Under the pieces are notes generated by a model that saw nothing but the letters and a program-made list of their open reading frames with translations, was not told the DNA's origin and ran no database searches. Shown in pieces: positions 25,785-47,636 of a DNA stretch of 64,000 bases. This DNA comes from Desulfobacterales bacterium (GTDB lineage Bacteria > Desulfobacterota > Desulfobacteria > Desulfobacterales > SURF-7). The stretch's first letter is position 1, and each line of letters begins with the position of its first letter. A program made the position numbers and the translations under genes. Location: the NCBI GenBank assembly GCA_041740615.1, contig JBGSLR010000097.1:29363-93362 (forward strand). Reading direction: 5' to 3'.

Positions 25785-26513
25785 TCACAATTTGAAATAC
25801 TGCTTGACATACGCCTCCACTTCAGGCGCAAAAATTGGATCAATCATATAGGCAGCCACTTCAACGGTGTAATGGCTTTCCTGACGCGAAAGGAGTCGGA
25901 TTTGAGGCTTTCGGATAATGGAACTCCACGGTGCGCACAATGCAACGATCTGAAGCTTCTGCTGGACTTCCGGAAAAGGTTCGAGCACCGGCACGGATAG
26001 CTGAAATGCAGTGCATGCGGCTTCCCTGGGTATTTTTTCGATCGCGCCTTCCCTGACAAGGGCGCTGTAAGGGATTTCGATGGTGCGACCATCCGCGGTT
26101 GCAATTGTCAGGGATCGATATCCCAGATTGGTCAGCTGGCCGCGGGTATTTTGAAAGTTGATGATGTCGTCGACCCGGTACCGGTCTTCCGCTTTAAAGA
26201 CGACACCGGCAATCCAGTCCCGAGCCACAAAACTGCCGGCCCAAGTTAAGACTCCCACCATCAGCACCAGCAATACGACCGAGCCGGCGATTCCGGTTTG
26301 AAAGATATGTTTTGCGCCCCATATCAAAAATACGATCCATATGGAAAATTCAACGATGGGGAAAAACCGGTTGATGATCGGATTCGCCTGTTTTCTGCGC
26401 ATGTAAAACGTGAGTCCTTTTTGAACGATCCGCAATCCCAGAAACAACAATACACCGATCAACAGGAATTCCAGAACCGTTAGTTCCGAAATTTCGAAAA
26501 GCAATTCTTTCAT
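25785..26513 (-). CDS. MscS-family mechanosensitive channel domain protein
   Basis: Three TMs then RDWIAGVVF..YRVDDII..LGYRSLTI..IEIPYS; 4-bp overlap with the upstream giant gene. Confidence 0.75.
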   Translation of the reverse strand: MKELLFEISELTVLEFLLIGVLLFLGLRIVQKGLTFYMRRKQANPIINRFFPIVEFSIWIVFLIWGAKHIFQTGIAGSVVLLVLMVGVLTWAGSFVARDWIAGVVFKAEDRYRVDDIINFQNTRGQLTNLGYRSLTIATADGRTIEIPYSALVREGAIEKIPREAACTAFQLSVPVLEPFPEVQQKLQIVALCAPWSSIIRKPQIRLLSRQESHYTVEVAAYMIDPIFAPEVEAYVKQYFKL

Positions 26514-29500: not shown

Positions 29501-31660
29501 GGTGACAACGGCGTTGAAAAAAGAAGATGCGTGAACCAGAAGCGTTGTACCCAATTTGGAAATGATGCGGCTGGTGTTTTCCAGCGCGTTCTGGGCACTT
29601 TGATGGGTGATGTCGGGCAATCCCAGGATGGTCAGATCCGAAGCAGCCGATTCCACGGAAATGATTTCCTCAAAAGAGCGCTGCTTGGCCGCGTTGTTGA
29701 TCACTTTGATATCGCCATCGAGCCGCGCATCCTGAAGGGTGCGTGTCATGTTTTTATAGATAGTCTCGATCAGGGCGCTCTCCTGGGTAACGATCAGAAA
29801 CCGCAGCCGGGCATCCCGCCACGGGAGGCTGGCCAGAATGAATTTCGACAGCGCCAGGGTGAAATTCCCATTATTCCCGGCGCCGCGCCACCAGATATCA
29901 ATGGTTTTGTATTCACCAAAGCCCCTCTGATCATGGTAATTCATCAGCATCAGGTTAAAATCCAGCTCACGGAGGTTTTTCAGAAGCTGAATAAATTCTT
30001 CGGGATCTTTGGTTTTTTTTCGCCATCCCATTAAAATGGCGTTGGGCTCAATGCCGGAAAACCCATAGGTCCGCGCAATGGTGTTGATCCCCTCGAACAC
30101 ATCCCGGCATTCCTGGCGACGGATGAACACCCCCTCAAACTCCTCGGCATCCGTGACAACCGTTCGACTGGATTTGGGGAACAGCACTTTGGCGGAAGGG
30201 TTTTCGATCAGGTCGAAATTGGATACCATACCAAGCTGCCCCGCGGTCCATCTGCCGAAGTCGATCAAGTGGGGCCGGGCAGTGGACCCGCCGCTGAACA
30301 GCAGTACATTGGGTTTCCAGTTGCGTTGATGTCGGCCGCCCTGGGAAAGTTTAAACAGCCCCATGCGGACAACGGAGAGCCAGATGCTCTCCCAGGCATC
30401 CCCGGTTTTCAGGGTCAGCTCCCTGCTTTTCAAAAAGAAAAGCAGCCCGCCCAGGATGACAATTCCGCCGATCATGGCCAGCAGATCGAGCTGAATCATC
30501 ACGATCAGACAGGTCAGGAATCCCAGGATGCTGACCCATTTGGGCACCTTGAAAGACGGCCGAAAGTCGGAACTGGCCCAGCGTTCCACGGCGCAGGACA
30601 GGTTCAGGAAACCATAGGTGGTGATAAAGAAAGTCGACACCACTCGCGCGATAATATCCAGTTCACCGATTAAAATCCCGACTTCGGCGATCAGGAAGGT
30701 GAGCAGCAGGGCGTTGCGGGGTTCGTTTTCCTTTCCATGCCCTTTAGCGAAAAACCGGGGGGTAATGTTGTCCACCGCCGTCGCCTGCAGGATCCTCGGG
30801 GCCCCCAGGATGCTTCCGATGGCGGAAGAAATCGTGGCCGCCCAGATCCCGGCGATCACCAGGGGCGGGTAGAGGGCGATTTCCAACAATACATTGGGAT
30901 TGTTGACCAGCGTGCCGGCGTCCACCCGGGACAGCAAAAAAACCGGTAGGCTCACATAAACCGCCAGCCCCACCAGAATGGCGGTGATGGTGCCCATGGG
31001 AATGGACTTCTGGGGTTCTTTCAGATCTCCGGACATGGATACCCCGGCCTCAAAACCGGTGACCGCCGGAAAAAAGATGCCGAACAGCACCATCATGGCG
31101 GGTGCGGTTGCCTGGGGTAGCAGGGGGATTTTGCCAGGGACATAGGCGGAATGACCGAACAGTACCGATATCAGGGACAGGATGATGGCGCCCAATATAA
31201 AAAACTGGGATTTCAAGGCAAGGGAGGTGCTGATGAACGTGAGCAGCGTCACCAGCAGCAGGACTGCCGTTCCGGTTATGCGAATGTTGTTGACGGTGTC
31301 TCCGATTCCCCAATAACTGTTGAAACTTTCCGAAAAACCGATGATATACAAACTGACGCTGAACGACAGCCCGAAAAAAAGGGCGATCCCCAGCGTGCCG
31401 CCGATGGACAGCCCCAGACTCCGGGAGATGATGTAATAACTGCCGCCGCCTTCCACCTTCTTATCCGTGGCGATGGAAGAAACGCTCAACCCCGTGCAGA
31501 TGGACACGATATGGGCCACCAGCACGATCCCGATCACCATGTAAAGTCCAGCCTGGCCGGCGATCCACGGCAGACGCATGTACATGATCACCCCGAGGAT
31601 CGTCAGGATGGAGGGAGTGAACACGCCGGCGAACGCGCCGTATTTTTTTGCCTGGGCCAT
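26510..31660 (-). CDS. SLC12/cation-chloride cotransporter (APC) fused to a long helical region and a C-terminal P-loop NTPase
   Basis: GVFTPSILTILGVIMYMR, FFPAVTGFEAGVSMSGDL, RNWKPNVL, IDIWW; C-terminal WVGRQAEL and GERFSGKS Walker A. Confidence 0.85.
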   Translation of the reverse strand: MAQAKKYGAFAGVFTPSILTILGVIMYMRLPWIAGQAGLYMVIGIVLVAHIVSICTGLSVSSIATDKKVEGGGSYYIISRSLGLSIGGTLGIALFFGLSFSVSLYIIGFSESFNSYWGIGDTVNNIRITGTAVLLLVTLLTFISTSLALKSQFFILGAIILSLISVLFGHSAYVPGKIPLLPQATAPAMMVLFGIFFPAVTGFEAGVSMSGDLKEPQKSIPMGTITAILVGLAVYVSLPVFLLSRVDAGTLVNNPNVLLEIALYPPLVIAGIWAATISSAIGSILGAPRILQATAVDNITPRFFAKGHGKENEPRNALLLTFLIAEVGILIGELDIIARVVSTFFITTYGFLNLSCAVERWASSDFRPSFKVPKWVSILGFLTCLIVMIQLDLLAMIGGIVILGGLLFFLKSRELTLKTGDAWESIWLSVVRMGLFKLSQGGRHQRNWKPNVLLFSGGSTARPHLIDFGRWTAGQLGMVSNFDLIENPSAKVLFPKSSRTVVTDAEEFEGVFIRRQECRDVFEGINTIARTYGFSGIEPNAILMGWRKKTKDPEEFIQLLKNLRELDFNLMLMNYHDQRGFGEYKTIDIWWRGAGNNGNFTLALSKFILASLPWRDARLRFLIVTQESALIETIYKNMTRTLQDARLDGDIKVINNAAKQRSFEEIISVESAASDLTILGLPDITHQSAQNALENTSRIISKLGTTLLVHASSFFNAVVTGIEYESNRDNQLFPDDALSNLGTQSLQLPPLTLPGDELLKLHISNLDQFVINMIFQTVERHFLVVHDQNRNLVKALGDLATNNLVRIGDLLKEGGSPKAKRTIAKIQGDLLFQFTRLITDFKQSSLTNQKDMLEEAVRNVKSRLDGYWQDLPEAIITLNSPEAIQPHPGDRTGLKWVKWVKRITCRWRKQPHPAVSVRFRQLIAAAWDHLVWEKWLNHFQQMAIHQYFWAQDIQRMVKLIKDRLDWSETQFLDGKLLSENVTEAQNEATRAVEGIQQVNNKIFFEFIRDMLRDYRHMVNQAAMESGSIDVAFHHRQHVKHQQPGKQAKLKLDEFPQAWLNNQTLLVEMMLMDLSLMAFQRRLAMILLRIKQDWFLSLENGLHDKIERLIHDIQAGMNPPEEKPEKEAKLQFEVNTNLIPEQAVKFIAEEIQPAFEKIPETAQAITELSLQQLQEGRFAEIDGLSVDLRELLEYFVYAELLDPLRQHLTGIPSKIEAIIAHVKDAVRFLSFNQSSPEFLGESSGESDSRSIVQQTVARIETEKESVVVLQQELMGAIDQGLKQLTEKINPYLIIQSSNELRRYIRYKESKKVISIFGKKGRKLETWAQQLLIKMIYRQPPGILKNQGGGIDSHGEPCVKEVLAWLDTVSPKTPVFDELPFHYKQLFVSDQPPNKDFWVGRQAELARAQTAVERFRSGTSGALMVTGERFSGKSALSHYIAHQFFDRQSVFQIFPPGDGSCSLEIFHQTMENAFQVRGSTEHLFLQIPSQSVIVFHNLELWWERHPQGNAIMNHMEWMIREFGRQCFFILNMNAHALKLIRNLQKFEEYFLDVVVCSPMTAEELKTLILLRHKATGLKLKLEHQSQETISELTFARLFRKFSDYSHGNVGVALHTWISHIEHVSGDTLQIATPSLPDLTPLSRLPMEWMVVILQFVLHRTLSQSKLVRLMGWNDPQFKRFMDVLHRAGILQARNDGLWSINPYLEPFVTDQLRARKML

Positions 31661-32247: not shown

Positions 32248-33966
32248 TCAACTCGCTTTGGGAAGCGTCGTTTCATACGACCATTCGCCCCAGACTTTTT
32301 CGACAATTTTCATCAACAGCGGCGTGATGATTTCGTCCGCCATCTTTCCGTACAGCAGATCAAGATGGTTGGCGCCCTCGATGACGAAATCGATCATCTG
32401 ACTCTTTTCCGAAGTGATCCGGACTTTTTTCAGATCGCTCGGGGAGGAAAGGTGGTACACTTTTTTCGTATGGTGGGGGTAGTACTGACTGTAGCGCAGG
32501 TTTTTCAACGATGCGAGATGGTCTTTGGTTCCCCAGAAATGGAAAACGGGGATGTCCTCCGGGAACCAGGCAAGGGAGTCCGAATAGTTCAGGCGGCTGT
32601 CGTCCATTCTTTTGAATCCCTTGCCGTCATAGATGGCTTTCAGGCATTGAAAGCCAAGGCCCAGGGGTATGGATTGGGTAGCGGTTTTCAGATATCGCTC
32701 GACGAAATATTTATCGTTTCTATGATTGTCGGGGGTAATCAGAAAATTCAGTTCTCCGATATTGTGATTGGAGAGAAACCGAATGATCTGCTTGAGCATG
32801 GGCAGTTCCGTGAGAACCTTGGAGATTTCCTGCACGGGCACCTGTTGGAAGCGGAAGATGCGGGACAGGTGATTCAGCCAGAGGGCCGTGGGGAAGAAGA
32901 TATGAGATTTCTTTTCGAAAAATTTCGGGGATCCCAGGGAAACGATGCCTTGGATCATCTTCAAGTAGTTCTCGGCTTCCGACAGGGGGGGAAGGATCTG
33001 GTTGAGGATTTCCTTCTGATCCTTGTCAAAGGTCCCGATTCCATCAAGATGGCGGCGCAGGGACCAGTTCAGCACCATATTCTCGGAAACCAGCCCGCCC
33101 ATGCTGTGACCGACCAGGATCGTGGGTTTGCCGTAACTTCGGGTATGCAGAAACCGGACGACCGTCGCCAGGTCGAAATCGATCAGGGTATCGACGGTGT
33201 ACAGGGGATCGAAGCGGCCCTCATTCACGCCGACGCCCCGGGGATCGAAAAGATATACCCAGTATCCCCTGTCGGCCAGGTCCTTGGACAGGGAATAGCG
33301 GTTGTTGATGTTGAAACAGTTGCTGTTGTTGGCAAAGCCCGGCACCAGAATCACGGCCGGATGATTGTCGCCGGCCGTGACCGCTTCCATGCTCACCAGG
33401 CGGCGGAAGGTGATTTCCTTGCCCTCATCGGTAAAGTCCCGGTAATAAACGGTTTCGTAGTCTCCGCGGCCGTTACGGATGGCTTCTTCGATTTTGCTTT
33501 CGAAATAGATCGGCACCGCATCCGTCCGCAAGGCCTCCTTCAGAATTCGGCGGCGGCGCGCGACATTCAGGATCGTGGGGATTTGCTTTTTGGGAATGTT
33601 GAAGCGTTTCAAGGACAGGAACGACAGATCGCTTTCAGAAAGAAGGATGACGTTTTCGGTCAGACGCAGCCTGCCCTTTTCCAGCTCATCGACGATCACC
33701 AGCTTGATATCATCCCGCTGAATCCTCATTCCGGTTGCATTCAGAAACATGTGATACAATGCCAGGGCCAGTTTGCCCACGGCATCGGTCCTGATTTCTT
33801 CCTGGCTGACGATCAGTTCCTTTGAAACCGGCAGCCCCATGTTGATTTGACCCTTATAGAATTTACTATAGGCATTGTAACTGGAATTGATCAACAGCGT
33901 CGGTATGTCGTTTACAACACAACGGGTAAATGAATTACGCACTTCATTCAATTTTTTGAAAATCAT
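32248..33966 (-). CDS. Alpha/beta hydrolase (lipase/esterase) with an N-terminal extra domain
   Basis: ILVPGF oxyanion region; GHSMGG nucleophile; GTKDHL Asp; NHLDL His. Confidence 0.82.
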   Translation of the reverse strand: MIFKKLNEVRNSFTRCVVNDIPTLLINSSYNAYSKFYKGQINMGLPVSKELIVSQEEIRTDAVGKLALALYHMFLNATGMRIQRDDIKLVIVDELEKGRLRLTENVILLSESDLSFLSLKRFNIPKKQIPTILNVARRRRILKEALRTDAVPIYFESKIEEAIRNGRGDYETVYYRDFTDEGKEITFRRLVSMEAVTAGDNHPAVILVPGFANNSNCFNINNRYSLSKDLADRGYWVYLFDPRGVGVNEGRFDPLYTVDTLIDFDLATVVRFLHTRSYGKPTILVGHSMGGLVSENMVLNWSLRRHLDGIGTFDKDQKEILNQILPPLSEAENYLKMIQGIVSLGSPKFFEKKSHIFFPTALWLNHLSRIFRFQQVPVQEISKVLTELPMLKQIIRFLSNHNIGELNFLITPDNHRNDKYFVERYLKTATQSIPLGLGFQCLKAIYDGKGFKRMDDSRLNYSDSLAWFPEDIPVFHFWGTKDHLASLKNLRYSQYYPHHTKKVYHLSSPSDLKKVRITSEKSQMIDFVIEGANHLDLLYGKMADEIITPLLMKIVEKVWGEWSYETTLPKAS

Positions 33967-36023
33967 CCCTTCTGTAACTCCTTGACTGCAAGTTCTTTTA
34001 CTCTCTCAATATCCTCATCGCTAAAAACACCTTCCACTCCCGAGATGGCGGCGAGTTTCATTCCGTGTTTCAGCCCCAGACGGTAGATTTCACGCACTTT
34101 GTCCCATTGGGGAGAAGAGCCGACGGTGTATGTCTCGAATCTTCCTTCCAGGGCCAGGATGATGGTCTCGGCCAGGCCGGCGTAGGCCACGTGGGGAGGA
34201 AGTCCAATGTCTTTCATTTCCACTGCTTCTCCGGGAAGAAGGATCTCACCGCTTCGGATCACCAGTACATCGGGTCTTTTGGCGGCTATCTTTTTTGTGA
34301 ACACCATGGGCCTTGTGATATCCGTGATCACACAGCCCGGCTTGACCTGCATGATGTCCAGCACGCGGCCGGCGCCGGAGCTCGCGGCGACGATGACGTC
34401 CATGTCTCCCAGATACGTGTCCGCCCGCGTGGAAACATGGAGCTTCACGTTGGGGGCTTCTTCCATGATGGATTCCTGCAGGGCCAACAGCTTGGCGATA
34501 TTCCGACCCACCAGATAGACTTCTTCAAAGGCACGCGCCAGCAGCCGAGAGCAGATGGCGCCAACCGGCCCCGTGGCTCCGATTACCATGGTTTTGGCGC
34601 TGATGATTTTCTTGCCTTTTTTCAACTTCGCAAGACCCATGCGGCGCACCGCTTCGGCCGCCGCCCAAAGGGCCGCGGAAGCGACATAACTGTTCCCGGT
34701 GGTGAGGGGAAGTGCGGCGTGCTTGGCCACTTCCAGGCTGGAGTCCTTCAATTCCCGGGGCATCATGCTGATTCCCATGATCTGCGCGCCCAGCTTTTTG
34801 GCGATAACGGCGGCCTGCAGGATGCGCTTTTTCGTAAAATCCGGGTGATGGGCCTGCATCTGATCAGGGGTTTCGCCGATGCCGATTAACCATCCCTCCG
34901 CCTCTACGCCGGTCTCGGATTTGATGCCCGTCACTTTCGAGTAAACGAACGGCGGCGAATACGCCATGGCTTTTTCCACCATTCCCATCACACCAGGGGT
35001 CATATCGGCAAGAACTTCGATGGGCTTTATTTTTTTCAGGAATTCCTGGTTCAGCGGATGCACCAGGTAGGCAAAGCGGTTGACGCGCCTGGGTTGACCG
35101 GAAGGGTAGATGATTCGCGGCTCCATGTTCATTTCCGTTATGATTTCAAGGAGATCGTCTCTGCCCCGCTGGTCCTTGGGAATATTCAACGCGGCGATCA
35201 GCAGCGCTTCCAGGACACAAACCCCGATCACTTCCTTGATGAGCGCCGGGGTGGTGTCGATGATGACATCGACGCCCTTGCTTTTCAAAAACTCCACCCG
35301 GTCGTCATAAGCGGTTGAGGTGATGATGGTTTTCCCGACCAGGTCGTCATCGTTCAGTAAGTTCAGATATTTATAAAAATTGCTATGGGGTACCACAAGG
35401 ATCTGGGCTTTTTGGGCCTCCTGGCGCAGGATATACTCATTGATGGAGCGTACCGGTTTGGATTCCGACAGAAATTGCCGTCCGGGGATCCATTTCAGCG
35501 CGGGGCGTATTTTACCGGCATAGAGTTGGAACTCGTCCAGGGAGCTGATGAGTCTGGGCAGGGCGTTTTCGATCAGCGGGTCGGCAAAGGCCATGTTGTC
35601 GGTGTATTCGGACATGACTCGGGCGATATTGAAGCTCGACATACCGGAAAACAAGAGCACCCTGGCATTGTTGAAGTAATTGTTGCCGAATTTGAACTGG
35701 GTGTGACGAAGTGACCATTCATGGCCCACCACGCGAAGGGTTTTGCCGATCGTGACGGGTGTTTCCAGGGTTTTCCCCAGCCGGATGAGTTTTTCGGTTT
35801 CCGGGTCCTGTTTGGCTTTCCGGCCAACACTGTAAGGGAACTTGATGCTTCCCAGACCGATGGCGTCGGCTTTCTTGTTCCATTGCAGCAGCAGATCCGA
35901 GGCTTGCTCAAAATCTCCGTCCGTTCCGAAACGGCGGATACAAAACTTTTGATTCATGAATCGGGTCTCAAATTCGTAATCGTCTCGACTTGGTCCGAGA
36001 CTGATATCAACGATCTGTTTCAA
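33963..36023 (-). CDS. Acyl-ACP-reductase-like two-domain protein, catalytic Cys replaced by Gly
   Basis: Paralogue of 36035..38098; TTGNSY, GATGPVG, AYAGLAETI. Confidence 0.75.
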   Translation of the reverse strand: MKQIVDISLGPSRDDYEFETRFMNQKFCIRRFGTDGDFEQASDLLLQWNKKADAIGLGSIKFPYSVGRKAKQDPETEKLIRLGKTLETPVTIGKTLRVVGHEWSLRHTQFKFGNNYFNNARVLLFSGMSSFNIARVMSEYTDNMAFADPLIENALPRLISSLDEFQLYAGKIRPALKWIPGRQFLSESKPVRSINEYILRQEAQKAQILVVPHSNFYKYLNLLNDDDLVGKTIITSTAYDDRVEFLKSKGVDVIIDTTPALIKEVIGVCVLEALLIAALNIPKDQRGRDDLLEIITEMNMEPRIIYPSGQPRRVNRFAYLVHPLNQEFLKKIKPIEVLADMTPGVMGMVEKAMAYSPPFVYSKVTGIKSETGVEAEGWLIGIGETPDQMQAHHPDFTKKRILQAAVIAKKLGAQIMGISMMPRELKDSSLEVAKHAALPLTTGNSYVASAALWAAAEAVRRMGLAKLKKGKKIISAKTMVIGATGPVGAICSRLLARAFEEVYLVGRNIAKLLALQESIMEEAPNVKLHVSTRADTYLGDMDVIVAASSGAGRVLDIMQVKPGCVITDITRPMVFTKKIAAKRPDVLVIRSGEILLPGEAVEMKDIGLPPHVAYAGLAETIILALEGRFETYTVGSSPQWDKVREIYRLGLKHGMKLAAISGVEGVFSDEDIERVKELAVKELQKG

Positions 36024-36034
36024 GATGACCTCCT

Positions 36035-38098
36035 CTAGTTCAGCGCCGCTTTTCTGGCTTCCAGTGCAAGTTTTTTGACCCTGGCGATATCCTCATCGGT
36101 GAACACGCCGTTCACGCCGGAAATGGCAGCCAGTTTCATGCCGTGCTTCAGACCCATTTTGTAGATTTCCTTTACTTTTTCCCATTCGATATCCCGGCCG
36201 ATGGTGAACACCTCAAAGCGACCCTCCAGGGCCAGAACGATGGTTTCCGCGAGACAGGCATAGGCGACTTTATGGGGCAGACCGATGCTTTTCATCTCCG
36301 GATTGCCGGGCAATTCGATTTCACCGGATTCGATGACGAGAACATCCGGCCGTTTGGCGACGTCTTCCGGCGAAAGATCCAGGGGCCGGGCCACATCGGT
36401 GATAATGCATCCCGGTTTCACGCGGGTGATGTCCAGAACGGTTTTACCGGCTCCGGAGGTGGCCGTGACAATGACATCCATGTCCGCCAGAAATTTATCC
36501 GGCCGGGTGGTCACTTTTATCTTTACCTCCGGATTTTCTTGCAGGATGGATTCCTTCAGCGCCATGAGCTTGGCGGTGTTGCGGCCGACCATGAAGACCT
36601 CGTCGAAGGCCGTGGCAAGCAGCCGACAACATACCGAACCGATGGCTCCGGTGGCGCCCAGAACCATGGATTTCCCCATGATTTTTTTCCCTTTTTCAAT
36701 TTTGATCAGGCCCATGCGGCGGACGGCGTCCGCCGCCGCCCATAGCGCGCCGGACGCACTGTAGCTGTTGCCGGTGGTGATGGGGATGTCCGCTTTTTTG
36801 GCCACGGTTACGCCCGCGTCGCCCACGACCTTGGTGAAGGCGCCGAGGCCCATGATCTGCGCGCCCATGCGTTTGGCCATTCTGGCGGCTTGCAGTAAGC
36901 GCTTGTACGTGAATTCCGGGCTGTGCGCCAGCATTTGCTTGGGAGTGCCTCCGACGGTGATCAACCAGCCCTCGGTCTCGGCGCCCGTTGGAGATTTGAT
37001 GCCGGTTACCCGGGAGTAGACCCAGGGTGGCGCATAGGCGACCACTTTTTCAACGGTGTCCAGGAATACCGGCGGTGTGAAACTGGCCATGAAATCCACC
37101 GCTTTGTCCTTTTTCAAAAATTCCTTTGAAAGGGGATGGATCACAAACGCGAAGCGGTTGATGCGTTTGGGGTTCCCCGAAGGATAGACGATGCGCGGGT
37201 CCATTTTTTGCGCGCTGATGATTTCCAGCAGGTCGTCCGACCTGACCTGGTCGCGGTTCCTTCCCATGGCGGCGATGATCAACGCTTCCAGCAGATTTGG
37301 GGGGACCACGCGTTCCAGAATTTTCGGTGTCGTATCGATGATGACATTCACCCCCCTTTCTTTCAGGAAGGAGACCCGGTCATCATCCGCGGTGGAGGTG
37401 ATGATGGTTTTGCCACCCAGTTCCTCAATGGAAGTGTTTTTCAGATAGTCGTAGAATTCGAAATGGGGCACCACAAGGATGTTGGCTTTCTGCATGGCCT
37501 TCCGCAGAATGTAATCATTCCACGATTGAATCGGCGCAACCGACCCGGTCAGTCGTTTGCTCGGCACCCATTGCAGGACTTCGTGGAATCCGTGGGCGTA
37601 GGACTCAAGATCCTTGAGGGAGTTGATGAATTTGGGAATGCCGTTTTCCAGGATCGGGTCGGCGAAAGAAAGGTTGTCGGTGAACTCGGACATCACCTTG
37701 GCGATGCGGTAGCTGGTCATGCCGGAAAGAAAAAGAACCCGGGCGTTGCTGAAGTAATTTCCAAATTTATACTCGATATAGCGCAGCGACCACTCGAAGG
37801 AAACGTCTCGCAGCTTGTCCCCCATGGTGACCGGGGTCTGGATTTGGGCCCCCAGCTCTCTCAGTTTGTTGCTGTTTTTTCTTGTCAGATAGCGGGGACC
37901 GATCCCATAGGGGCGTTTAATGCCCCCCAGGCCGATGGCGGCTGCCTCCTTATCCCATTTCAGCAGAAAGGCGGCGGCTTTTTCCATGTTTCCGTCGGTG
38001 CCCAATCGTTTGATGATGAAATTCTGGCCAAGGAATTCCGTCTCAAATTCATAATCTTTCTCGCTTGGTCCTAAACTGATGCTGACGACCTTTTTCAC
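36035..38098 (-). CDS. Acyl-ACP/CoA-reductase-like two-domain protein (aldehyde-forming type)
   Basis: C-terminal half matches cyanobacterial AAR motifs: APPWV, GLGAFT, ITTGNSY, GATGAIGS, AYACLAETI, HGMKLA. Confidence 0.78.
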   Translation of the reverse strand: MKKVVSISLGPSEKDYEFETEFLGQNFIIKRLGTDGNMEKAAAFLLKWDKEAAAIGLGGIKRPYGIGPRYLTRKNSNKLRELGAQIQTPVTMGDKLRDVSFEWSLRYIEYKFGNYFSNARVLFLSGMTSYRIAKVMSEFTDNLSFADPILENGIPKFINSLKDLESYAHGFHEVLQWVPSKRLTGSVAPIQSWNDYILRKAMQKANILVVPHFEFYDYLKNTSIEELGGKTIITSTADDDRVSFLKERGVNVIIDTTPKILERVVPPNLLEALIIAAMGRNRDQVRSDDLLEIISAQKMDPRIVYPSGNPKRINRFAFVIHPLSKEFLKKDKAVDFMASFTPPVFLDTVEKVVAYAPPWVYSRVTGIKSPTGAETEGWLITVGGTPKQMLAHSPEFTYKRLLQAARMAKRMGAQIMGLGAFTKVVGDAGVTVAKKADIPITTGNSYSASGALWAAADAVRRMGLIKIEKGKKIMGKSMVLGATGAIGSVCCRLLATAFDEVFMVGRNTAKLMALKESILQENPEVKIKVTTRPDKFLADMDVIVTATSGAGKTVLDITRVKPGCIITDVARPLDLSPEDVAKRPDVLVIESGEIELPGNPEMKSIGLPHKVAYACLAETIVLALEGRFEVFTIGRDIEWEKVKEIYKMGLKHGMKLAAISGVNGVFTDEDIARVKKLALEARKAALN

Positions 38099-38162: not shown

Positions 38163-38453
38163 TCATCCTGAATCATCCCGTCCATCTCCGTCGTTTCCGA
38201 TGGCGTTCACCGGACAGATATCCATGGCTTCCAGGCACCGTTCTTCCTCTTCCTCCGAGGAAGGTTGTTTGTATACGAATTCATACCCTTCCTCCAGATT
38301 CGAGCAAAAATTGTTCGATGCGATTTCCGCACATAGGGTGCATCCGATGCAGGTATCGTCGACGTAATATCTCCCCTGAGTGTTTTCCTTTATTTTTTTC
38401 GCTTTATTCGGCAACCCAATGTCCGTTTTCGACTTCGACGTAAGAGGCGACAC
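38163..38453 (-). CDS. Single-cluster ferredoxin
   Basis: YYVDDTCIGCTLC...CPVNAI. The start may be the TTG at 38414. Confidence 0.88.
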   Translation of the reverse strand: MSPLTSKSKTDIGLPNKAKKIKENTQGRYYVDDTCIGCTLCAEIASNNFCSNLEEGYEFVYKQPSSEEEEERCLEAMDICPVNAIGNDGDGRDDSG

Positions 38454-38754: not shown

Positions 38755-40416
38755 TCAGCGTGTCAGTTCCCGCATGATTTGAGCGACGTCCTGCAGCTGG
38801 GTGTCCTCTTCGATGACTTGCTGGTGAATACTGCAATAATCGGATCCCGGGATCGGTTGTTTGCGGCACGCTTTTCCGGTTTTTGTTTCGCCTTTGCAAC
38901 GCGCGGTGTCACCGCCGACCGATGGCGTTTTTTTCTGGCTTTTGGCTGCTTTGGCTTCCTGATACCGGTCGTGAAGAACCAGGGGTTCGTCGTAAATCTT
39001 TCCGGATTTCACCAAGTCCAGCAGAAAGTTGAATTCCTCTTCAAACCCCTCCAGCAACAATTCCGGATCCGGCATCAACTTTTCATCGGAAGAGATACCC
39101 ACCGTAACCTTCTCATCATAGCTCAGAATGCTGATCCCCAAACCGATTTTCCCGGAGCGGGGAACCCAGAACATGAGGTTGTTGATTTTCTTCCCGGCGA
39201 AATATAACGGTTGCCGTGGCCCGGGAACGTTGGTCATGACACCGGAAGCCTTGTTTCCGAAAAGCTGGGCGGCTTTGCGGGCAAGTGCGGGCGGCAGATA
39301 TCCGATGGCGCTCAGAAGACCGAAGTTAATATACGGGTCCGGTGATTTTTTCAGCTGGTCCATTCGCCGTTTCACCTCTTTGAGCCGCAAAACCGGATCT
39401 TCCAGATACACCGGCAGGGGTAGAAAGACCAGACTGAACTTGTTGCCCAGTTCGAATTCGGTCCCTGGTTTCCGGATATTCACCGGGATCGTGACGCGCA
39501 GGTCAAGCTCGTTGACCGGGGTTTTCCGTGTCTTCAAATACCGTCTCATGGCGCCGGTGACCGTGGCGACCAGCACATCATTCAGCGTGGCGGTGCTGAT
39601 GGCCTTGCCGACGGTTTTGATTTTATCCAGGGCCATCGGTTCCGTCCAGGCGACTTTTTTTCGCACGCCCAAGTTGCCTTTGAAGGCCGTGTTGGGATCC
39701 GAACTCATGATGGTGTGCTTGGAAAGGACGGAAGCGAAATCCGTAGGCAGACAGCTTGTGTTTTTGGCTAATTTTTTTAGATAATCCGTGTCCGTGACGG
39801 CTTTTTCGATTTCCTTGATCATTTTCTTGCTGAATTTTCGACCGGCGCCCGCGGTGTCTTTGACCCTGCGAATCACACTGTCGACCGAGAGAAACGACCC
39901 GATAGGTGATTTCACCGATTTCTTGCGCGGTTCGAGTTTGGGCCAGGGTGCTTTGGGGTCCGTATCGGCGGCCGATAACAAGACATGAATGAGTGCAATG
40001 CCGTCTCCAATACAGTGATGAATACGAAAAAAAAGCACGCACCCGTTTCCGTAATTTTCGATCAGATGAACCTGCCAGAGAGGTTTGTCCGGATCCAGTG
40101 GGCTGATCATCAGGTTGGCGATCATTTCCTGTAGATCGTTTTTGTCCCCCGGATCCGGTAAGGCAATTCGATGAAGATGAGATTTCAGGTCGTAATTCTT
40201 GTCCGTTTCCCAGAAGGGGAGCCCGATGCCCGACTTGGGGCGGATGATGTGCTTCTGGAATCGCGGGAAGGAAGCCAATCGGCTTTCAATCGTGGCGTAC
40301 AATCGGTTATAGTCGATCAGCGATTCAAACTCCATGAAAGCGGTGATCACCATCAGGTTGGTGGGATCATCCATACAGAGCCAAAAATTATCGGCATTGG
40401 TCATGCGCTCGGCCAT
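38755..40416 (-). CDS. Wax ester synthase/diacylglycerol acyltransferase (WS/DGAT) with a C-terminal C3H zinc finger
   Basis: PLWQVHLIE, HHCIGDG, TLNDV, PVNIR, LGNKF, TNVPGP, SILSY. Confidence 0.92.
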   Translation of the reverse strand: MAERMTNADNFWLCMDDPTNLMVITAFMEFESLIDYNRLYATIESRLASFPRFQKHIIRPKSGIGLPFWETDKNYDLKSHLHRIALPDPGDKNDLQEMIANLMISPLDPDKPLWQVHLIENYGNGCVLFFRIHHCIGDGIALIHVLLSAADTDPKAPWPKLEPRKKSVKSPIGSFLSVDSVIRRVKDTAGAGRKFSKKMIKEIEKAVTDTDYLKKLAKNTSCLPTDFASVLSKHTIMSSDPNTAFKGNLGVRKKVAWTEPMALDKIKTVGKAISTATLNDVLVATVTGAMRRYLKTRKTPVNELDLRVTIPVNIRKPGTEFELGNKFSLVFLPLPVYLEDPVLRLKEVKRRMDQLKKSPDPYINFGLLSAIGYLPPALARKAAQLFGNKASGVMTNVPGPRQPLYFAGKKINNLMFWVPRSGKIGLGISILSYDEKVTVGISSDEKLMPDPELLLEGFEEEFNFLLDLVKSGKIYDEPLVLHDRYQEAKAAKSQKKTPSVGGDTARCKGETKTGKACRKQPIPGSDYCSIHQQVIEEDTQLQDVAQIMRELTR

Positions 40417-40853: not shown

Positions 40854-41330
40854 CTATGCGTTCTGACTCGAAACGGAGGTTTCCATCCGCTCCGCGTCGG
40901 CTTCGAGCGCCGGTTCCGGTCTTGCGGCTTGTTTGGCTTGGGTTTTCTGAGCCTTGGCGATATGTTGGGCCTGAATCTTTTCCAGTTCGTCGACTTTTTG
41001 GGCTAGTTTTTTCAAGCTGCCGTTCAGTTTCACGATCTGTTCCTTGTTGGCCAGATTCATCACCTCTAAAATTTTATTGAGTCGCTTGTCGACCTGGGTG
41101 CCGATCCATTTTTTGATATTCTCCGGGCGCAGCGGGGTTTCTTTTTTCTTGCTGGGTGCGGGTGTCAATTGCGCCATAACGGATTTCGTCACATCCTTGC
41201 CGGTGCTGCTGAGAACGACCTTGAATTTTTTCTTGCTTTTGATCATGTCGGTCACTTGTTCTTTGGTGATGTATTCCTTGTTTAACGTGTCATACAGTTT
41301 CCCGTTTGCGTATTTTTTAACCGTGAGCAT
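40854..41330 (-). CDS. PhaR-type N-terminal DNA-binding domain + phasin-like coiled coil
   Basis: VKKYANGKLYDTLNKEYIT..TGKDVT; MNLANKEQI coiled coil; AGGAGG RBS. Confidence 0.78.
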   Translation of the reverse strand: MLTVKKYANGKLYDTLNKEYITKEQVTDMIKSKKKFKVVLSSTGKDVTKSVMAQLTPAPSKKKETPLRPENIKKWIGTQVDKRLNKILEVMNLANKEQIVKLNGSLKKLAQKVDELEKIQAQHIAKAQKTQAKQAARPEPALEADAERMETSVSSQNA

Positions 41331-41533
41331 GGCCCCTCCTTGATACTGTTTGATGATGCGTAGAAATACTTTCAAAAACATTCCCTCGGTTTCAAAAACC
41401 GCGTTATATACGGGGTGCGTGGGACAGGAATGATATTCCCGTCGTGGAGAGCGTTCCCCGATCCGGTGCTGAACCCGATTGAAGATTTTGAAAATACTTC
41501 TACTGGGTTTTGTTGGGTTTCGTAATCGTTATG

Positions 41534-41640: not shown

Positions 41641-42315
41641 TTACGCGGCGTAAGTCTTGCTCAGCGTATCCACCTTGATGTTCAATTCTTTCATTCCTTT
41701 GACCAGGCTGTCAATGTCTTTTTTACTGGGCAGGTTGAGTTGATCCGGAATGGATTTGATTCTGTTGGTGATTTTCTTTTCGATTTTTTGCTTGCCGGGG
41801 ACTTTGTCCATGACCTTTTTCCCGCTCTGGATGAGGTCCTTTTTTACGATCCGGGCGTCTTTCTCGATTCCCTTCAAGACGGACTTGGTGTCTTCGATGA
41901 GGCTGTCCATTTTTTCTCGGGTGTCGTCTTTCAGCTCTTCCAAAAAGTCCTTGCTTTCATCCATCAGTCGGGAGATGGTTTTTCGCGGGTCTTTCTTGGC
42001 TTTTTTCAGAAAATCCTTGCCGTCGTCAACCAGGGTGTCGATTTTTTTCCGCGCGTCTTTTTTAACATCTGCAATCAGTTCCTTGCCGTCGTCCACGAGT
42101 CCCTCAATGGCCTTGCGGGGATCGTTTTTCAGGTCTTCCACCAGCTCTTTGCCGTTTTCGATGGGCTTCTTGATAAATTTTTCATTGTATCGATCCAGCT
42201 TGTCCGTCAGAGTGGTTTTGGCTTCCTGAATGTTGCGGACGACATAAAAGCGCGACTGGGTTTTCCCTGCGTCCTTTTTGACCGCTTTCCGTTTTGCATT
42301 CTTTGCCTGTGCCAT
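41641..42315 (-). CDS. Apolipoprotein-like 22-mer-repeat protein with a PhaF/PhaI-type C-terminal motif (putative lipid-body coat)
   Basis: Five tandem 22-aa amphipathic repeats; LNLPSKKDIDSL; Lys-rich N-terminus; GGAGG RBS. Confidence 0.75.
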   Translation of the reverse strand: MAQAKNAKRKAVKKDAGKTQSRFYVVRNIQEAKTTLTDKLDRYNEKFIKKPIENGKELVEDLKNDPRKAIEGLVDDGKELIADVKKDARKKIDTLVDDGKDFLKKAKKDPRKTISRLMDESKDFLEELKDDTREKMDSLIEDTKSVLKGIEKDARIVKKDLIQSGKKVMDKVPGKQKIEKKITNRIKSIPDQLNLPSKKDIDSLVKGMKELNIKVDTLSKTYAA

Positions 42316-42439: not shown

Positions 42440-42621
42440 GTCCTTTTTTTATGTTTTTTTATTTTTTTGTCGGTTGAAATCGGACGGCATGGATGTTCAT
42501 GAGTGGACGCGGTCGATAGGGCGCACGGATCGTCCGTCAAAGCATTTGACAAATACGGGCGGAATTGGAAAAATGCCATGAATTGAATCGAACAACCCAT
42601 ACCTGCGCACCGGAGGCCAGC

Positions 42622-43194
42622 ATGCACAAAATAAAAAAATACGCCAATCGCAAGATGTATGACACGACGGGCAAGAGATATATTTCCATGACCCAGCTTG
42701 CCGAATTGATCAAGTCCGGTGAGGAGGTGATGATCGTGGATAATCGCACGGACGAGGATCTGACCACGGCCATTGTATCCCAACTCATCGGCAGGGAGAA
42801 AAAAGGCAAGGATAAAATCGTATCCTCCAAAGTGTTGATGCAACTTCTTCGAAAGGGCGGCGGCACCTTGACCGACTATGCCAAAAAATACGCCAGCCTC
42901 TGGCAGAATGCGTTTACCATGGCGGAAGATGAAATCGACCGGGTCGTCAACCTGCTGGTCAAAGACAAGGAACTTTCCAAATCGGAGGGGAGCCGGCTCA
43001 AAAGAGAAATTATCGGATATTCCGACGGCTTGAAGAAATGGGTCAGCGACAATGTCGACAGGCGGATCAATGAGGTGTTCAGCGTGATGAACCTGGCGAC
43101 CAAGGATGAGCTGAACGGATTGGCGTCCAGAATCGATCGAATGGAGAGAAAGATCCAAAAAATAGAGGCCTCGCAGGAAAAGGGGGGGCGGTAA
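42622..43194 (+). CDS. PhaR-type DNA-binding domain fused to a phasin (PhaF/PhaI-like) domain
   Basis: IKKYANRKMYDTTGKRYIS..VDNRTDEDLT; LVKDKELSKSEG; MNLATKDEL; GGAGG RBS. Confidence 0.82.
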   Translation: MHKIKKYANRKMYDTTGKRYISMTQLAELIKSGEEVMIVDNRTDEDLTTAIVSQLIGREKKGKDKIVSSKVLMQLLRKGGGTLTDYAKKYASLWQNAFTMAEDEIDRVVNLLVKDKELSKSEGSRLKREIIGYSDGLKKWVSDNVDRRINEVFSVMNLATKDELNGLASRIDRMERKIQKIEASQEKGGR

Positions 43195-43213: not shown

Positions 43214-44884
43214 TTAACGCGCCTGGAAGAACCGGCGCATGTACCGGGGCGGACGCTTCATCCATTGAGAACAGACCCCGGCCAGCAGCAGCCCGATTTC
43301 TTTCTGCAGGTCGCCGATTCTTTCGGTGCGAAACCGATACAAGGCCCATGCTTCATACAGGATGGCGCGATGAATTCTCAGGCGAACAAAGTCATTGAGG
43401 AATTCGCCCATGCCGGCCCAAAAAAGATAGTCATTCCGGTCGAAGGATGGATCGATATCGGCCAGCACGCCTTTCAGGGTCACCGCCGCCTTTTCGTACA
43501 TCATGAGATCGGTTGGAAACATGACCCCCAGATAGGTGAGCTCCTCGAAAAACGTTTCAATGCTCGTGAAGATGCCACGGATACCGTCCTTGCGGTCGGC
43601 GATGACGGTGTCGATGAATTGCAGGGCCGTTGATTCAAGATCCCGATTCCGGGAGAGCTGGCCGTTGGTCAGGAGGTCGGCGGCATAGAAAACCGCCTGC
43701 CGTCCGGCAAACAGCAGCCCGAAGGACAGGAGGATCATCAGAAATCTTTCCCGCCGGGTCAGGCGCCCCATCATGGCCCAGTCATAGAAAATGATTGTCG
43801 GGAGATCTTCGTCGAACCGGTAGGCGATGTTGCCGGCGTGGGGGTCGCCGTGAAAAATGCTGATGTCGCTCAGATCCTGGAGTGGCTTGAGGATACAGGT
43901 TTTTGCCAGCGCTTCGGCCAGCAGTCTTTTTTGGGCCGGCGTCAAGCCGGCGACATCCGTGATTTTCTTCCCTTCCAGACGAGACATGACGGTCATCTCG
44001 GGCGTGGATACGGCGAGGGGTTCCGGAATGGCGATCCGGTAAAGGTCGCGATAGTATTCCCGGGCCACCGCCAGATGGACCTGTTCCGCGCCTAGATTGG
44101 TTTCATTTTCGATCAGGCCCCGGACCTGGTTGAGGGTTCCTGAAAAATTGAACCCGCGCATTCCCCAGTTGCCTTTGTGCTCGTCCAGGAAAACAGCCAG
44201 TCTTTCCAGTAAGGCCAAATCGCCGGGCAGGTTTTTTCGAATTTTCGGTTTGACGACCTTGAGAACGGCCTGAACCGGGGCCCGGGCGTTTTTCAGGGTC
44301 ACTTCCGCTGGAACAACGGCGCAGACGCTGGCTTCGGCGCGAACCAAAGGTTGCGGGATGATGGCGTTTCCAGCCGGCAGTTGTCGTACCTGTTTTGCAA
44401 TGAGCGGTCGGATCTGCCGGTAGGTGACGGTTTTCAGGTTGTCTTCCAGATCCACCAGGGCCTGCTTGAAGGCGGGGTCCAGACCGGGAGTGCGGCAGAT
44501 GACCTGACCCAGTTTCTGAATGCAGGGCATGTCTTTCACCAGCAAGTACAATCGTTTCCCCTGGTCGGCATGGGGGGAGAGTCTCAACTGGTCGACGATT
44601 TTTTCCGCAAGGCGCACAACGGGCAGTTCCTTCAGAATGAAAATCATGGCCTCTATCACCACGGGCTGGAATTGAATATAGCAAGCCGGAAGCAGAGCGG
44701 AAAGGCCGGTCATGGCCGCCAACGGACGTGCCACCTGTTCGACGGCGTCATCGCGTTTCAGTCGTTTCAATATAGCGGTCACCCTGCGTCTCATCATGGT
44801 CGGCGTCGGTCGACGTCCATCGACCGGGGCCATTGCCGCCAGGAAGGCCTGCATGTGATCGGTTCTGTGTGTAGCGCTTCCCAT
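43214..44884 (-). CDS. ABC1/UbiB (AarF) atypical kinase, divergent
   Basis: QKLGQ, EASVCAV, VLKVVKP, HGDPHAGN, YDWAM. Start MGSATH follows a GGGAGG RBS. Confidence 0.85.
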   Translation of the reverse strand: MGSATHRTDHMQAFLAAMAPVDGRRPTPTMMRRRVTAILKRLKRDDAVEQVARPLAAMTGLSALLPACYIQFQPVVIEAMIFILKELPVVRLAEKIVDQLRLSPHADQGKRLYLLVKDMPCIQKLGQVICRTPGLDPAFKQALVDLEDNLKTVTYRQIRPLIAKQVRQLPAGNAIIPQPLVRAEASVCAVVPAEVTLKNARAPVQAVLKVVKPKIRKNLPGDLALLERLAVFLDEHKGNWGMRGFNFSGTLNQVRGLIENETNLGAEQVHLAVAREYYRDLYRIAIPEPLAVSTPEMTVMSRLEGKKITDVAGLTPAQKRLLAEALAKTCILKPLQDLSDISIFHGDPHAGNIAYRFDEDLPTIIFYDWAMMGRLTRRERFLMILLSFGLLFAGRQAVFYAADLLTNGQLSRNRDLESTALQFIDTVIADRKDGIRGIFTSIETFFEELTYLGVMFPTDLMMYEKAAVTLKGVLADIDPSFDRNDYLFWAGMGEFLNDFVRLRIHRAILYEAWALYRFRTERIGDLQKEIGLLLAGVCSQWMKRPPRYMRRFFQAR

Positions 44885-44940
44885 CGGGTCCTCCCGAAAA
44901 CCGGAACATTCCTCTTGACAAGTTTCCGGTCTCAAGCCTA

Positions 44941-44969: not shown

Positions 44970-45129
44970 GGCGGCTTTGAAATGGGGCGGTTCCTTCAAC
45001 TGACTTGAAAGTGGGGCATGTTCCATGATACTCCTGAAACGATGGGGCGCTTTTACCGAAGCGTATGGCGACGAGCCCGTTGGAACCGGTTATAGCAGCC
45101 GGATAATATGGTTTGCGGAAAGTGCATCA

Positions 45130-45783
45130 ATGAGCGATAAAATCACAAGCGGTAAGCAGCATGAGGATCGTTTTTTTGAGTTGAAGCGCGCGCTACAGGC
45201 ATTCCAGGCCGCCCGTTTGAGTAAAACCTATAAAGATATAAAGGAAAATCCGGAATATACCAAAATCGGAATTTTTTTCTTTGAGAAATTGTACGCCCCT
45301 GAAGACTTTTCGTTCCGGGATGAGAGCATCCGGAAACTGCACAAGATTTTGAGAGGTAAAATCTATTCGGGGATCATATCGGCGGTCAACAAGGTCATCG
45401 AGTTGCATGAAATAACGGATGAACTGGACAATCGGATGGTGGCGGAGATGGTTGCCCTCGGTATCGGACCGGACCTGGATATGCAGCAATATCAAGAAAT
45501 CTACCGCCGGCTGGACAACTACGATCAGCGCCTCTATCAGATCCGACTGAGCACCGACGTCACCCGGACATTTCATCACCTGAGCAAGAAATGGCTGGTG
45601 GCGATTTCCCTCAATACCGTAAGGTCCGCCGCCCATCTGATCGGCATGGGCAGGATTCTCGATTTTATTTACGACGCCTATGAAGGATTTCGGGCGATCC
45701 GGAATATCGATTTTTTCGTGGAAACGGTCGAACAACGCGAAATCGCATGGCATAATGAAATCTGGTCCAACGCAACCGTATAA
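45130..45783 (+). CDS. FFLEELY-motif protein
   Basis: QAARLSKTYKD..FFFEKLYAPEDFSFRD..ELHEITDELD. Confidence 0.7.
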   Translation: MSDKITSGKQHEDRFFELKRALQAFQAARLSKTYKDIKENPEYTKIGIFFFEKLYAPEDFSFRDESIRKLHKILRGKIYSGIISAVNKVIELHEITDELDNRMVAEMVALGIGPDLDMQQYQEIYRRLDNYDQRLYQIRLSTDVTRTFHHLSKKWLVAISLNTVRSAAHLIGMGRILDFIYDAYEGFRAIRNIDFFVETVEQREIAWHNEIWSNATV

Positions 45784-45794: not shown

Positions 45795-47636
45795 ATGTTG
45801 CCAGAATATTTTGAGTTTTCGCTCCCGACAAAAGTGGTTTACGGGATCGGCATCCTTGCGAATATCGGCGATGTCGTGGCCCCTTTCGGTAGCCGTAAGG
45901 CCATCCTGGTGACCGATGCCATCCTGGTCAAGGCCGGGCCGGTGGAGAAAGTCAAAAGCGGTTTTCAAAAATCGGATATCGAAATCGTCTGCACTTTCGA
46001 TGACGTTCCGCCGAATTCCACCATTGAGACCGTCGAAAAATGCGCTGCCCTGGCGAAAAAAAACAGCTGTGATTTGATCATCGCCGTGGGGGGCGGCAGT
46101 GTCATCGATACGGCAAAGGTGGCCAATATTCTGCTGGTGAAGGGGGGCAAGCTGGAAGATCACATGGGGGCATATCTTCTGGGAAGCCGGGAGCGGCTGC
46201 TGCCGGCGATTTTTATTCCGACCACGGCCGGGACCGGTTCCGAAGTGACCAAGGTAGCGGTGATCGCCGACCCGCAAAACGACGTCAAACTTCCCTTTGC
46301 CGAGGAGCAATTCCTGCCCCAATTGGCTGTTCTGGACCCGGAAGTCACCACTTCCATGCCGGGCAAATTGACGGCCGGAACCGGGATGGATGCCTTGACC
46401 CATGCGATTGAAGCCTATGTGGACAAGGAGTGGTCACCGGCCACCGATGCATTGGCCCTGCATGCCGTCAAGCTGATCTCCGGCAATATCCTGCAGGCCT
46501 GCGCCAAACCGGATGATATGGAGGCCCGTGGGGCCATGCTGGTGGGGAGCTTTCTGGCCGGCGTGGCATTCTCCCATTCCATGGTGGGAATGGTTCATGG
46601 TATTTCCCATGCCCTCGGCGGCGTTTACCACATTCCCCATGGCTTGGCCAATGCGTTGGTCCTGCCGGAAGTGATGGCCTACAATCTGGAAGCGCAATAC
46701 GACCGGTTCGCCGACATCGCAGCGGCCATGGGAATCTCTTTCCCGCAGATCGTCCATCAGGGAAAGAGCATCCTGTCCTCCAGCCGTTTCGATGTTCTGT
46801 CCAGGATCGTGAGCCGTTCCGAGGTGGATTCTCTCAAAGAGCTGGTCAACACCGGTTCGTTCCGCGCCCGGGGACTGGCGGCAAGAGCGCTGGGAAATTT
46901 CGAGTTTATCGATCAATGGGTCAGAAAACAGGCGGCACTTGCGGCCATCGAAAAAATTCGCACCCTGAATCGCCAACTGGCGTATCTGACGAAAATGCCC
47001 CTCTCCCTGAAAGAGGCCGGTATCAAAGATAATTTGGCGAAACTGGAACAGACGGCCGCAACGGCCATGGAAGACGGTTCCATGTTGTACAATCCGGTCG
47101 AGCCGGAAAAGAACGCCGTCATGGAAATCATTCAAAAGGTGTATTCCTCCAAGGCCACTCCGCTGCCGGTTTCCCGCGAGGATCTTCGTGTCGAAAGCGC
47201 CGCCCGAAGAGCAAAGGAGCCGGAACGGGTATTCACGGACGCGGTCATGTTGTATGACGTGTTGATCGGTTTTTATGAAGAACTGAAGGACAGCCCCGAT
47301 ATCGGCCCGGCGCTCGCCAAAACCAGCCTTTGTATACAGTTCCGTTATCAGAAACCGACCGCGGTCATCACCATCGACGCCACCGGCAAAACCATCCGTA
47401 TCGTCAAAGGGGCTTTCGACGGCAAACCGGAAGTGACCATGACCATGAACGCCGATTTTGCGCACAAGTTCTGGCACGGCAAGGCCAATTTGGTCAGCGC
47501 CCTGACCCGCCGGCAGGTTTCGGCCAAGGGCAACGTGCCCAAGACAATCAAATTACTACCAATTCTAAAGCCGGCCTACGCTCTCTATCCGAAGTTCTTG
47601 AAGAAAAAAGGGTTGGGAAGTCTGACTATTTTATAA
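45795..47636 (+). CDS. Iron-containing alcohol dehydrogenase fused to an SCP2 lipid-binding domain
   Basis: GGGSVIDTAK, PTTAGTGSE, DALTHAIE, HGISH, HGLAN; C-terminal PEVTMTMNADFAHKFWHGKANLVSAL..VSAKG. Confidence 0.88.
   Translation: MLPEYFEFSLPTKVVYGIGILANIGDVVAPFGSRKAILVTDAILVKAGPVEKVKSGFQKSDIEIVCTFDDVPPNSTIETVEKCAALAKKNSCDLIIAVGGGSVIDTAKVANILLVKGGKLEDHMGAYLLGSRERLLPAIFIPTTAGTGSEVTKVAVIADPQNDVKLPFAEEQFLPQLAVLDPEVTTSMPGKLTAGTGMDALTHAIEAYVDKEWSPATDALALHAVKLISGNILQACAKPDDMEARGAMLVGSFLAGVAFSHSMVGMVHGISHALGGVYHIPHGLANALVLPEVMAYNLEAQYDRFADIAAAMGISFPQIVHQGKSILSSSRFDVLSRIVSRSEVDSLKELVNTGSFRARGLAARALGNFEFIDQWVRKQAALAAIEKIRTLNRQLAYLTKMPLSLKEAGIKDNLAKLEQTAATAMEDGSMLYNPVEPEKNAVMEIIQKVYSSKATPLPVSREDLRVESAARRAKEPERVFTDAVMLYDVLIGFYEELKDSPDIGPALAKTSLCIQFRYQKPTAVITIDATGKTIRIVKGAFDGKPEVTMTMNADFAHKFWHGKANLVSALTRRQVSAKGNVPKTIKLLPILKPAYALYPKFLKKKGLGSLTIL

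Follow-up and report, generated by a model that had tools for sequence, protein, structure and literature searches.

Why would an anaerobic sulfate reducer keep, directly beside a predicted acyl-thioester reductase, a paralogue of almost the same length that lacks the catalytic cysteine? The question is raised by two adjacent genes, here called A and B, in a 64,000-nucleotide stretch of contig JBGSLR010000097.1 from a Desulfobacterales bacterium (assembly GCA_041740615.1); this whole stretch is referred to as the window. A first-pass annotation, made from the letters alone, had described the two as AAR-like tandem paralogues, one catalytic and one a probable pseudo-enzyme. On balance, we favour the view that A and B go back to an old tandem duplication of a two-module reductase and that B is a maintained pseudo-reductase, which most likely serves A as a stoichiometric partner, either modulating it or linking it to the hydrolase encoded downstream.

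A predicted reductase and its Cys-less paralogue

The features of the pair are as follows.

36035..38098, minus strand: gene A, two-module AAR/PigE-type acyl-thioester reductase, 687 aa, GTG start
36254..36256, minus strand: TGT codon of Cys615 of A, the alignment partner of AAR Cys294
36024..36034, minus strand: A-B spacer of 11 nt, in which the TAG stop of A runs into AGGAGG
33963..36023, minus strand: gene B, Cys-less paralogue of A, 686 aa, TTG start
34176..34178, minus strand: GGC codon of Gly616 of B, the ex-catalytic position, read from the sequence

The open reading frames, translations and codons bear out in every detail what had been reported of the pair, namely two colinear paralogues of about 687 residues with Cys and Gly motifs and Rossmann loops. 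The two proteins are 59% identical over 683 alignment columns. In A, the motif AYACLAE is encoded by gcc tat gcc TGT ctc gcg gaa (TGT at 36256-36254), and in B the motif AYAGLAE is encoded by gcc tac gcc GGC ctg gcc gag (GGC at 34178-34176); TGT and GGC differ at two bases. A is laid out as a degenerate N module (residues 1-312) and a C module (313-687) that holds Tyr398, the loop GLGAFTKVVGDAG, the dinucleotide loop GATGAIG, Cys615, and Arg506/Lys510/Arg635. The loop corresponding to GLGAFTKVVGDAG reads GISMMPRELKDSS in B, GLGAFT of A stands against GISMMP of B, and the dinucleotide loop of B is intact as GATGPVG. The AGGAGG of the spacer lies 5 nt ahead of the TTG start of B, and the translation of B is likely coupled to that of A.

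The C-terminal halves (about residues 313-687) connect both proteins to known reductases. Against the N-terminal thioester reductase of PigE (NF053554), A scores 185 bits and B 130 bits over profile positions 1-359 of 837, without reaching the equivalog cut-off of 850; against AAR (TIGR04058), the scores are 73.1 and 43.3 bits, without reaching the cut-off of 449.7. The best solved-structure match of A is 4ppm (E 1.4e-27), and the AAR structures 6jzq, 6jzu, and 6jzz match at E 1e-13 to 7e-12. For B, a confident model (pLDDT 88, pTM 0.88) has AAR (target-normalised TM 0.69-0.72, E ~1e-17; 0.72 for 6jzq) and the carmabin 'TAD' reductase domain as its best structural matches. Neither protein matched PF07993 (NAD_binding_4) or HMG-CoA_red in the Pfam domain search, and the domain search gave no aminotransferase domain in either.

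The Cys of A had been equated with the catalytic nucleophile of AAR, and the phmmer alignment agrees, placing Cys615 on residue 294 of the 6jzq chain in a register that we verified at Tyr247, Met279, and Arg314 as named in the available text of PMC7089970. In AAR, according to that text as far as it is available, Cys294 bears the acyl-enzyme thioester, one cleft serves both NADPH and CoA, and the ribose phosphate is held by Arg189, Arg193, and Arg314. The Cys294 equivalent is present in A (Cys615) and absent in B (Gly616). In the same alignment, Arg506/Lys510 of A pair with Arg189/Arg193, and Arg635 with Arg314; B keeps Arg506 and Lys510 and has Ser at 635.

Both proteins also carry about 312 extra N-terminal residues. 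The first-pass annotation had seen here a domain that AAR lacks; the domain is indeed present, and is probably not a foreign one but a dead duplicate of the AAR-like module whose glycine-rich loop has been lost. In the Pfam search, this region gave no match for A and only a sub-threshold chance match for B. Profiles built from 82-88 family sequences, one of the N module (1-312) and one of the C module (313-687), align by hhalign with a probability of 82% (E 1.1e-5, 156 columns), pairing AIGLGGI with IMGLGAFT, TPVTMGD with IPITTGNS, and VLFLSGMTS with MVLGATGAIG. The N domain, modelled with confidence (pLDDT 92, pTM 0.90), has its top Foldseek TM values with carmabin TAD (0.47-0.50) and AAR 6jzq (0.46). 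The lowest Foldseek E-values, however, belong to periplasmic sugar-binding proteins (TM 0.31-0.38), which speaks against a duplicated module. In the Protein Atlas, proteins of 296-341 aa auto-named quinate 5-dehydrogenase make up the nearest clusters (score 0.92), which we take as a lead only.

Conservation of the pair and losses in B

In a search of 41 genomes, the source genome (G000) included, family matches were found in 16, two of them weak and partial. Full-length members occur in 14 genomes, 13 of which hold both types (G026 gave one match only), and in two of these 13 the genes are cut or parted by contig ends. Among 24 distinct full-length proteins, Cys and GAFT are present in 13/13 A orthologues and in 3/3 unlinked third copies, and Gly without GAFT is present in 8/8 B orthologues. 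The third copies are a Cys-type paralogue of about 738 aa (L039, G002:C2; L040, G001:C18; L041, G016:C3) that was not found in G000.

We scanned species genomes with an alignment of B sequences only; 489 relatives came up, and 80 loci were kept. Nearly all are labelled Desulfobacterales, Thermodesulfobacteriota or 'delta proteobacterium', and the closest named records are metagenome-assembled genomes of Desulfosudis oleivorans. The arrangements at these loci are the following.

Tandem Cys then Gly, same strand: 53/80 loci
Tandem Cys then Ser, same strand: 1/80 loci
Cys and Gly genes 2.2 kb apart (L108): 1/80 loci
Second gene cut by contig end: 2/80 loci
Single Cys, room for a neighbour: 9/80 loci
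Single Cys, no room: 3/80 loci
Single Gly, no upstream room: 5/80 loci
Single Gly, with room (L099): 1/80 loci
Single Ser-type: 4/80 loci
Cys-Cys tandem (L122): 1/80 loci

The same-strand tandem of Cys gene and non-Cys gene is found in 54/80 loci (gaps of 15-556 nt), and the Gly copy is not the peculiarity of one strain; a Gly copy both strain-specific and evolving neutrally would, by the first-pass annotation, have refuted the pseudo-enzyme proposal. A lies upstream of B in every B-proper locus with upstream room, that is, in the 54 tandem loci and in L108. This strict adjacency and order, together with the likely translational coupling and the co-inheritance of the genes, supports a partnership of B with A.

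What has B lost, and what has it kept? For the comparison we took 57 Cys-type sequences and, from their alignment, the 76 columns with conservation of 85% or more. In the B clade, Cys615 has become Gly, Arg635 has become Ser, and Tyr398 (100% in Cys-type) has changed, as have Ala420, Thr422, Gly426, Asp427, and Gly429 of the GAFT..GDAG loop; a few further changes are conservative. Across 55 B sequences, GxGxxG is invariant, as are Asn444, Lys510, Asp568, Arg583, Asp585, Tyr613, Ala617, Glu618, and His652; Arg/Lys506 is kept in 55/55 and Gly615 in 54/55, and the variable positions are 419, 420, 424, 426, and 427 of the loop and position 635. The two-base codon difference had been read as evidence against a sequencing error; it is confirmed, and Gly in 54/55 B sequences leads us to reject an assembly error as well. 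To judge from these residues, B is without the nucleophile and the elements that serve acyl-CoA/NADPH phosphate binding in AAR, and retains a dinucleotide-type site and the old active-site surroundings. With Cys, Tyr398, the GAFT/GDAG loop, and the phosphate-holding Arg gone, no acyl-enzyme should form, so that on its predicted active site B cannot be a thioester reductase. Calling B a pseudo-enzyme for that reaction was therefore sound, and the losses go beyond the Cys.

B is under purifying selection and is not decaying. By the Nei-Gojobori method (NG86) across seven genome pairs, dN/dS is 0.03-0.09 for A, 0.07-0.11 for B, 0.05-0.15 for the wax ester synthase/acyltransferase (WS/DGAT) gene nearby, and 0.05-0.10 for the hydrolase gene; four of the seven pairs have a dS close to saturation, and the other three (dS 0.26-0.49) give values in line with theirs. 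Neutral evolution of the Gly copy, the other half of the refuting condition given above, is thus not what we find. Within B, the C module is the most constrained part (0.045-0.088, against 0.11-0.13 for the N module). Preserved as it is across a bacterial order, B must have a job.

The loss of Cys is not confined to B. Among 66 full-length representatives from a library of 1.8 billion proteins, nine have another residue at this position (G, G, E, T, E, A, S, T, and G), and the same loop and Tyr are missing in these nine. Trees give at least 3-4 independent Cys losses in the family; P0014 and P0110, with no alignable Cys region, are outside trees and counts. In the better tree, made from 74 of the 132 locus proteins after a k-mer redundancy filter, the non-Cys proteins of Desulfobacterales all group in a single clade of 49 rows (SH-aLRT 99), and B proper accounts for 43 rows (99). 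GDAG and Arg635 are retained in L120, which branches off early; this suggests that Cys and Tyr were lost first and that the rest decayed later.

Two other forms of the family were seen among the loci. In the tandem of L122 (7001-9052 and 9201-11231), Cys and all motifs are kept in both copies, and this locus may show what the pair looked like before Cys was lost. The Ser-type proteins of L116, L119, L121 (each matching at about 7001-9060), and L123 (2566-4626) form a stand-alone subfamily with YASLAEA, Asn in place of Tyr398, and GDAG kept. Neither WS/DGAT nor hydrolase was found near these four loci, and their genomes, G042 and G043, also have two further family members elsewhere.

Neighbouring genes and the possible roles of B

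The genes around the pair in the window are listed below.

32248..33966, minus strand: alpha/beta-fold serine hydrolase, 572 aa, GHSMGG box
38163..38453, minus strand: single-cluster ferredoxin directly upstream of A (Fer4_13, 67.7 bits); its true start may lie inside the listed open reading frame
38755..40416, minus strand: WS/DGAT, 553 aa (domain search)
40854..41381, minus strand: PhaR-like protein (PHB_acc_N)
41641..42315, minus strand: phasin/apolipoprotein-like protein (domain search)
42565..43194, plus strand: PhaR-like protein with a phasin-like tail (domain search)
43214..44935, minus strand: ABC1 atypical kinase-like protein (domain search)
45025-45783, plus strand: FFLEELY-motif protein (NF047641, 169 bits)
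45795..47636, plus strand: iron alcohol dehydrogenase with a C-terminal SCP2 lipid-transfer domain (Fe-ADH-SCP2), 613 aa (domain search)

On the minus strand, the order is WS/DGAT, ferredoxin, A, B, hydrolase. Among pair loci with room, WS/DGAT lies upstream in 31/41 and ferredoxin lies upstream of A in 39/47; of all single-Cys loci, 6/12 have ferredoxin there, and their typical order is WS/DGAT, Fe-ADH, A (L106, L114, L118, L127). Fe-ADH-SCP2 occurs in or near the pair loci of the window, L054, L057, L059, and L129, downstream of the hydrolase in L057 and L129. L129 comes from a metagenome scan with P0024, and its contig ends at the start of B; L128, from the same scan, has only 582 nt upstream and is uninformative on pairing. 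The FFLEELY-motif gene adjoins a PhaR-like gene in many related loci. Beyond the hydrolase, the minus-strand gene at 26510-31660 encodes 1716 aa, of which the N-terminal ~670 aa are cation-chloride cotransporter-like (TIGR00930, 398 bits, below cut-off), fused to a cytoplasmic extension of ~1000 aa in which a Walker-A-like GKS motif was seen by eye.

The operon context fits a supply of fatty aldehyde or alcohol for wax esters. In such a route, acyl-CoA or acyl-ACP would acylate Cys615 of A, and NADPH would then free the fatty aldehyde, which Fe-ADH-SCP2 would turn into the alcohol and WS/DGAT would esterify to a wax ester, while the phasin and PhaR-like proteins would coat or regulate the lipid body. 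B would be a pseudo-reductase produced alongside A, as its fold, its dinucleotide loop, and its conserved Gly under purifying selection suggest. The favoured reading thus draws on observed homology, residue losses, conservation, selection, and synteny.

Elsewhere in the genome, which is that of a dsrA-positive sulfate reducer and is 94.9% complete, there was no match to aldehyde-deformylating oxygenase (ADO; PF11266), and no HMGR-type reductase was found. A canonical AcrB-type fatty acyl-CoA reductase is encoded on contig C49 (L042 1486-3510), where it adjoins the gene of an AraC/FtrA-like regulator; it scores 654 bits against NF005539, above the cut-off of 549. A second WS/DGAT is encoded on contig C38. 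We had considered A and B as the only fatty acyl reductase of the genome, and reject this since the AcrB-type gene is present.

Several points weigh against B as a maintained partner of A in wax ester supply. The 12 loci with a single Cys copy and no B (nine with room, three without) imply that the enzyme works alone in those relatives, and that B is an optional addition, not an indispensable half. In sister clades of B, the non-Cys protein is the sole family member found with P0001 as query in three genomes (L099 in G041, L120 in G044, L105 in G045), which argues that Cys-less forms can act alone. The AcrB-type reductase and the second WS/DGAT mean that the pair is not required for wax ester capacity. 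The invariant dinucleotide loop and conserved Gly of B are as compatible with a retained activity that depends on a cofactor as with a scaffold. Finally, we infer, rather than observe, the substrates, the direction of the reaction, and the physical association of A and B.

B could thus be a partner of A, an adaptor of the hydrolase, or a Cys-independent NAD(H) enzyme, and these three candidate roles are not mutually exclusive. A more specific form of the partnership, which we put forward tentatively, is a heteromer in which the doubly dead B keeps a nucleotide/CoA-type pocket and an acyl tunnel, and passes the aldehyde from A to the hydrolase/acyltransferase or to Fe-ADH-SCP2. If true, this aldehyde-channelling heteromer would be an anaerobe's counterpart of the hand-off from AAR to ADO, and an undescribed class of fatty acyl reductase in wax ester pathways, widespread in Desulfobacterales.

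Alternatively, B may have been neofunctionalised as a Cys-independent NAD(H) oxidoreductase, for example a fatty aldehyde reductase, or an alcohol/aldehyde dehydrogenase in mobilisation, which would make A and B a split two-step system. We regard this as rather doubtful, at perhaps one chance among several. The retention of GxGxxG, Arg/Lys506, and Lys510 throughout the B sequences and the near-fixed Gly615, which shows no drift, are what a working cofactor site would lead one to expect, and loss of the Arg314 equivalent fits a move away from the NADPH 2'-phosphate or the CoA 3'-phosphate; the sole-member sister-clade proteins point the same way, with a PlsC/DAGAT-like acyltransferase adjoining L105 and WS/DGAT in the vicinity of L120. 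However, Tyr398 and the GAFT/GDAG loop, invariant or nearly so in the Cys-type sequences, are lost and the loop is now variable, no catalytic acid/base candidate was identified in B, and Fe-ADH-SCP2, present in or near the pair loci named above, is itself capable of the aldehyde step.

It is less probable still that B mainly serves the downstream alpha/beta-hydrolase, perhaps as an acyl- or lipid-binding adaptor, and that both arrived in one event as a module for mobilisation or remodelling. The gene after B is the hydrolase in 42/49 pair loci with room, whereas 0/12 single-Cys loci are followed by it, the TGA stop of B and the ATG of the hydrolase share bases as ATGA in the window, and L129 has the order B, hydrolase, Fe-ADH. 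Against this, seven pair loci with room have no downstream hydrolase (L054, L059, L064, L065, L069, L074, L081), and the linkage of B to A is equally tight. We reject, as having a negligible chance, a pseudogene origin of B, whether decaying or peculiar to one strain, and likewise an assembly error as the source of its Gly: dN of B is about twice that of A (for example, 0.074 vs 0.030), yet the frame is intact in every locus read, the fold model is confident, and the dN/dS, the tandem loci, and the recurrent Gly given above all contradict it.

Comparison with known systems

Wax esters and neutral lipids of anaerobic sulfate reducers are sparsely studied. A literature search, with most subscription journals outside its reach, found no publication on the two-module family or on the Cys/Gly pair. 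Fatty aldehydes and alcohols would gain a new route of synthesis from a widespread AAR-fold reductase that is tied to WS/DGAT, to an alcohol dehydrogenase with a lipid-transfer domain, and to proteins of the lipid body, which is relevant to lipid biomarkers and biocatalysis. Given the repeated loss of the same active-site elements (at least 3-4 times), B also offers a clean natural case for pseudo-enzyme function.

Cyanobacterial AAR (TIGR04058; PDB 6JZQ/6JZU/6JZY) shares its fold with the C modules of A and B, and A resembles it further in the GATGxIG loop, the Cys294 equivalent, and the basic residues at the Arg189/Arg193/Arg314 positions. However, AAR is a single module of ~340 aa, whereas A and B are twice that length, with an extra degenerate module. 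AAR works with aldehyde-deformylating oxygenase, the enzyme that was not found in the host genome; the host here is an anaerobic sulfate reducer, and B is without the Cys.

PigE (NF053554; PDB 4PPM) and the carmabin 'TAD' domain (PDB 9E4S-9E56) are the top sequence matches and have their Cys in the same xxCxAE motif. Unlike these, A and B are not fused to an aminotransferase and stand in no NRPS/PKS context; their setting is a lipid-storage operon. The reductase domains of PigE and TamH are the subject of PMC8341465 and PMC9594044, as far as the available parts of those papers go.

In the wax ester pathway itself, a 2025 survey lists, in the text available, four types of reductase only, namely FarA, AcrB, Acr1, and FcrA (PMC11948995), and none of the four as described there has the fold of A and B. 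The role proposed for the pair, supply of fatty aldehyde or alcohol to WS/DGAT, is that of AcrB (PRK07201), FarA, Acr1, and FcrA, and the gene is linked to WS/DGAT. These known reductases differ from A and B in fold.

The arrangement of an active and an inactive copy has parallels of its own. In type II polyketide synthases, the ketosynthase and the chain-length factor are a pair of catalytic subunit and dead paralogue. Like these and, as far as the available account of them goes, like CER1/CER3, A and B are adjacent or co-expressed paralogues, one of which has no nucleophile and is nevertheless conserved. They differ in that Gly replaces Cys in B, and in that a heteromer of A and B is at this stage only a proposed counterpart of those pairs.

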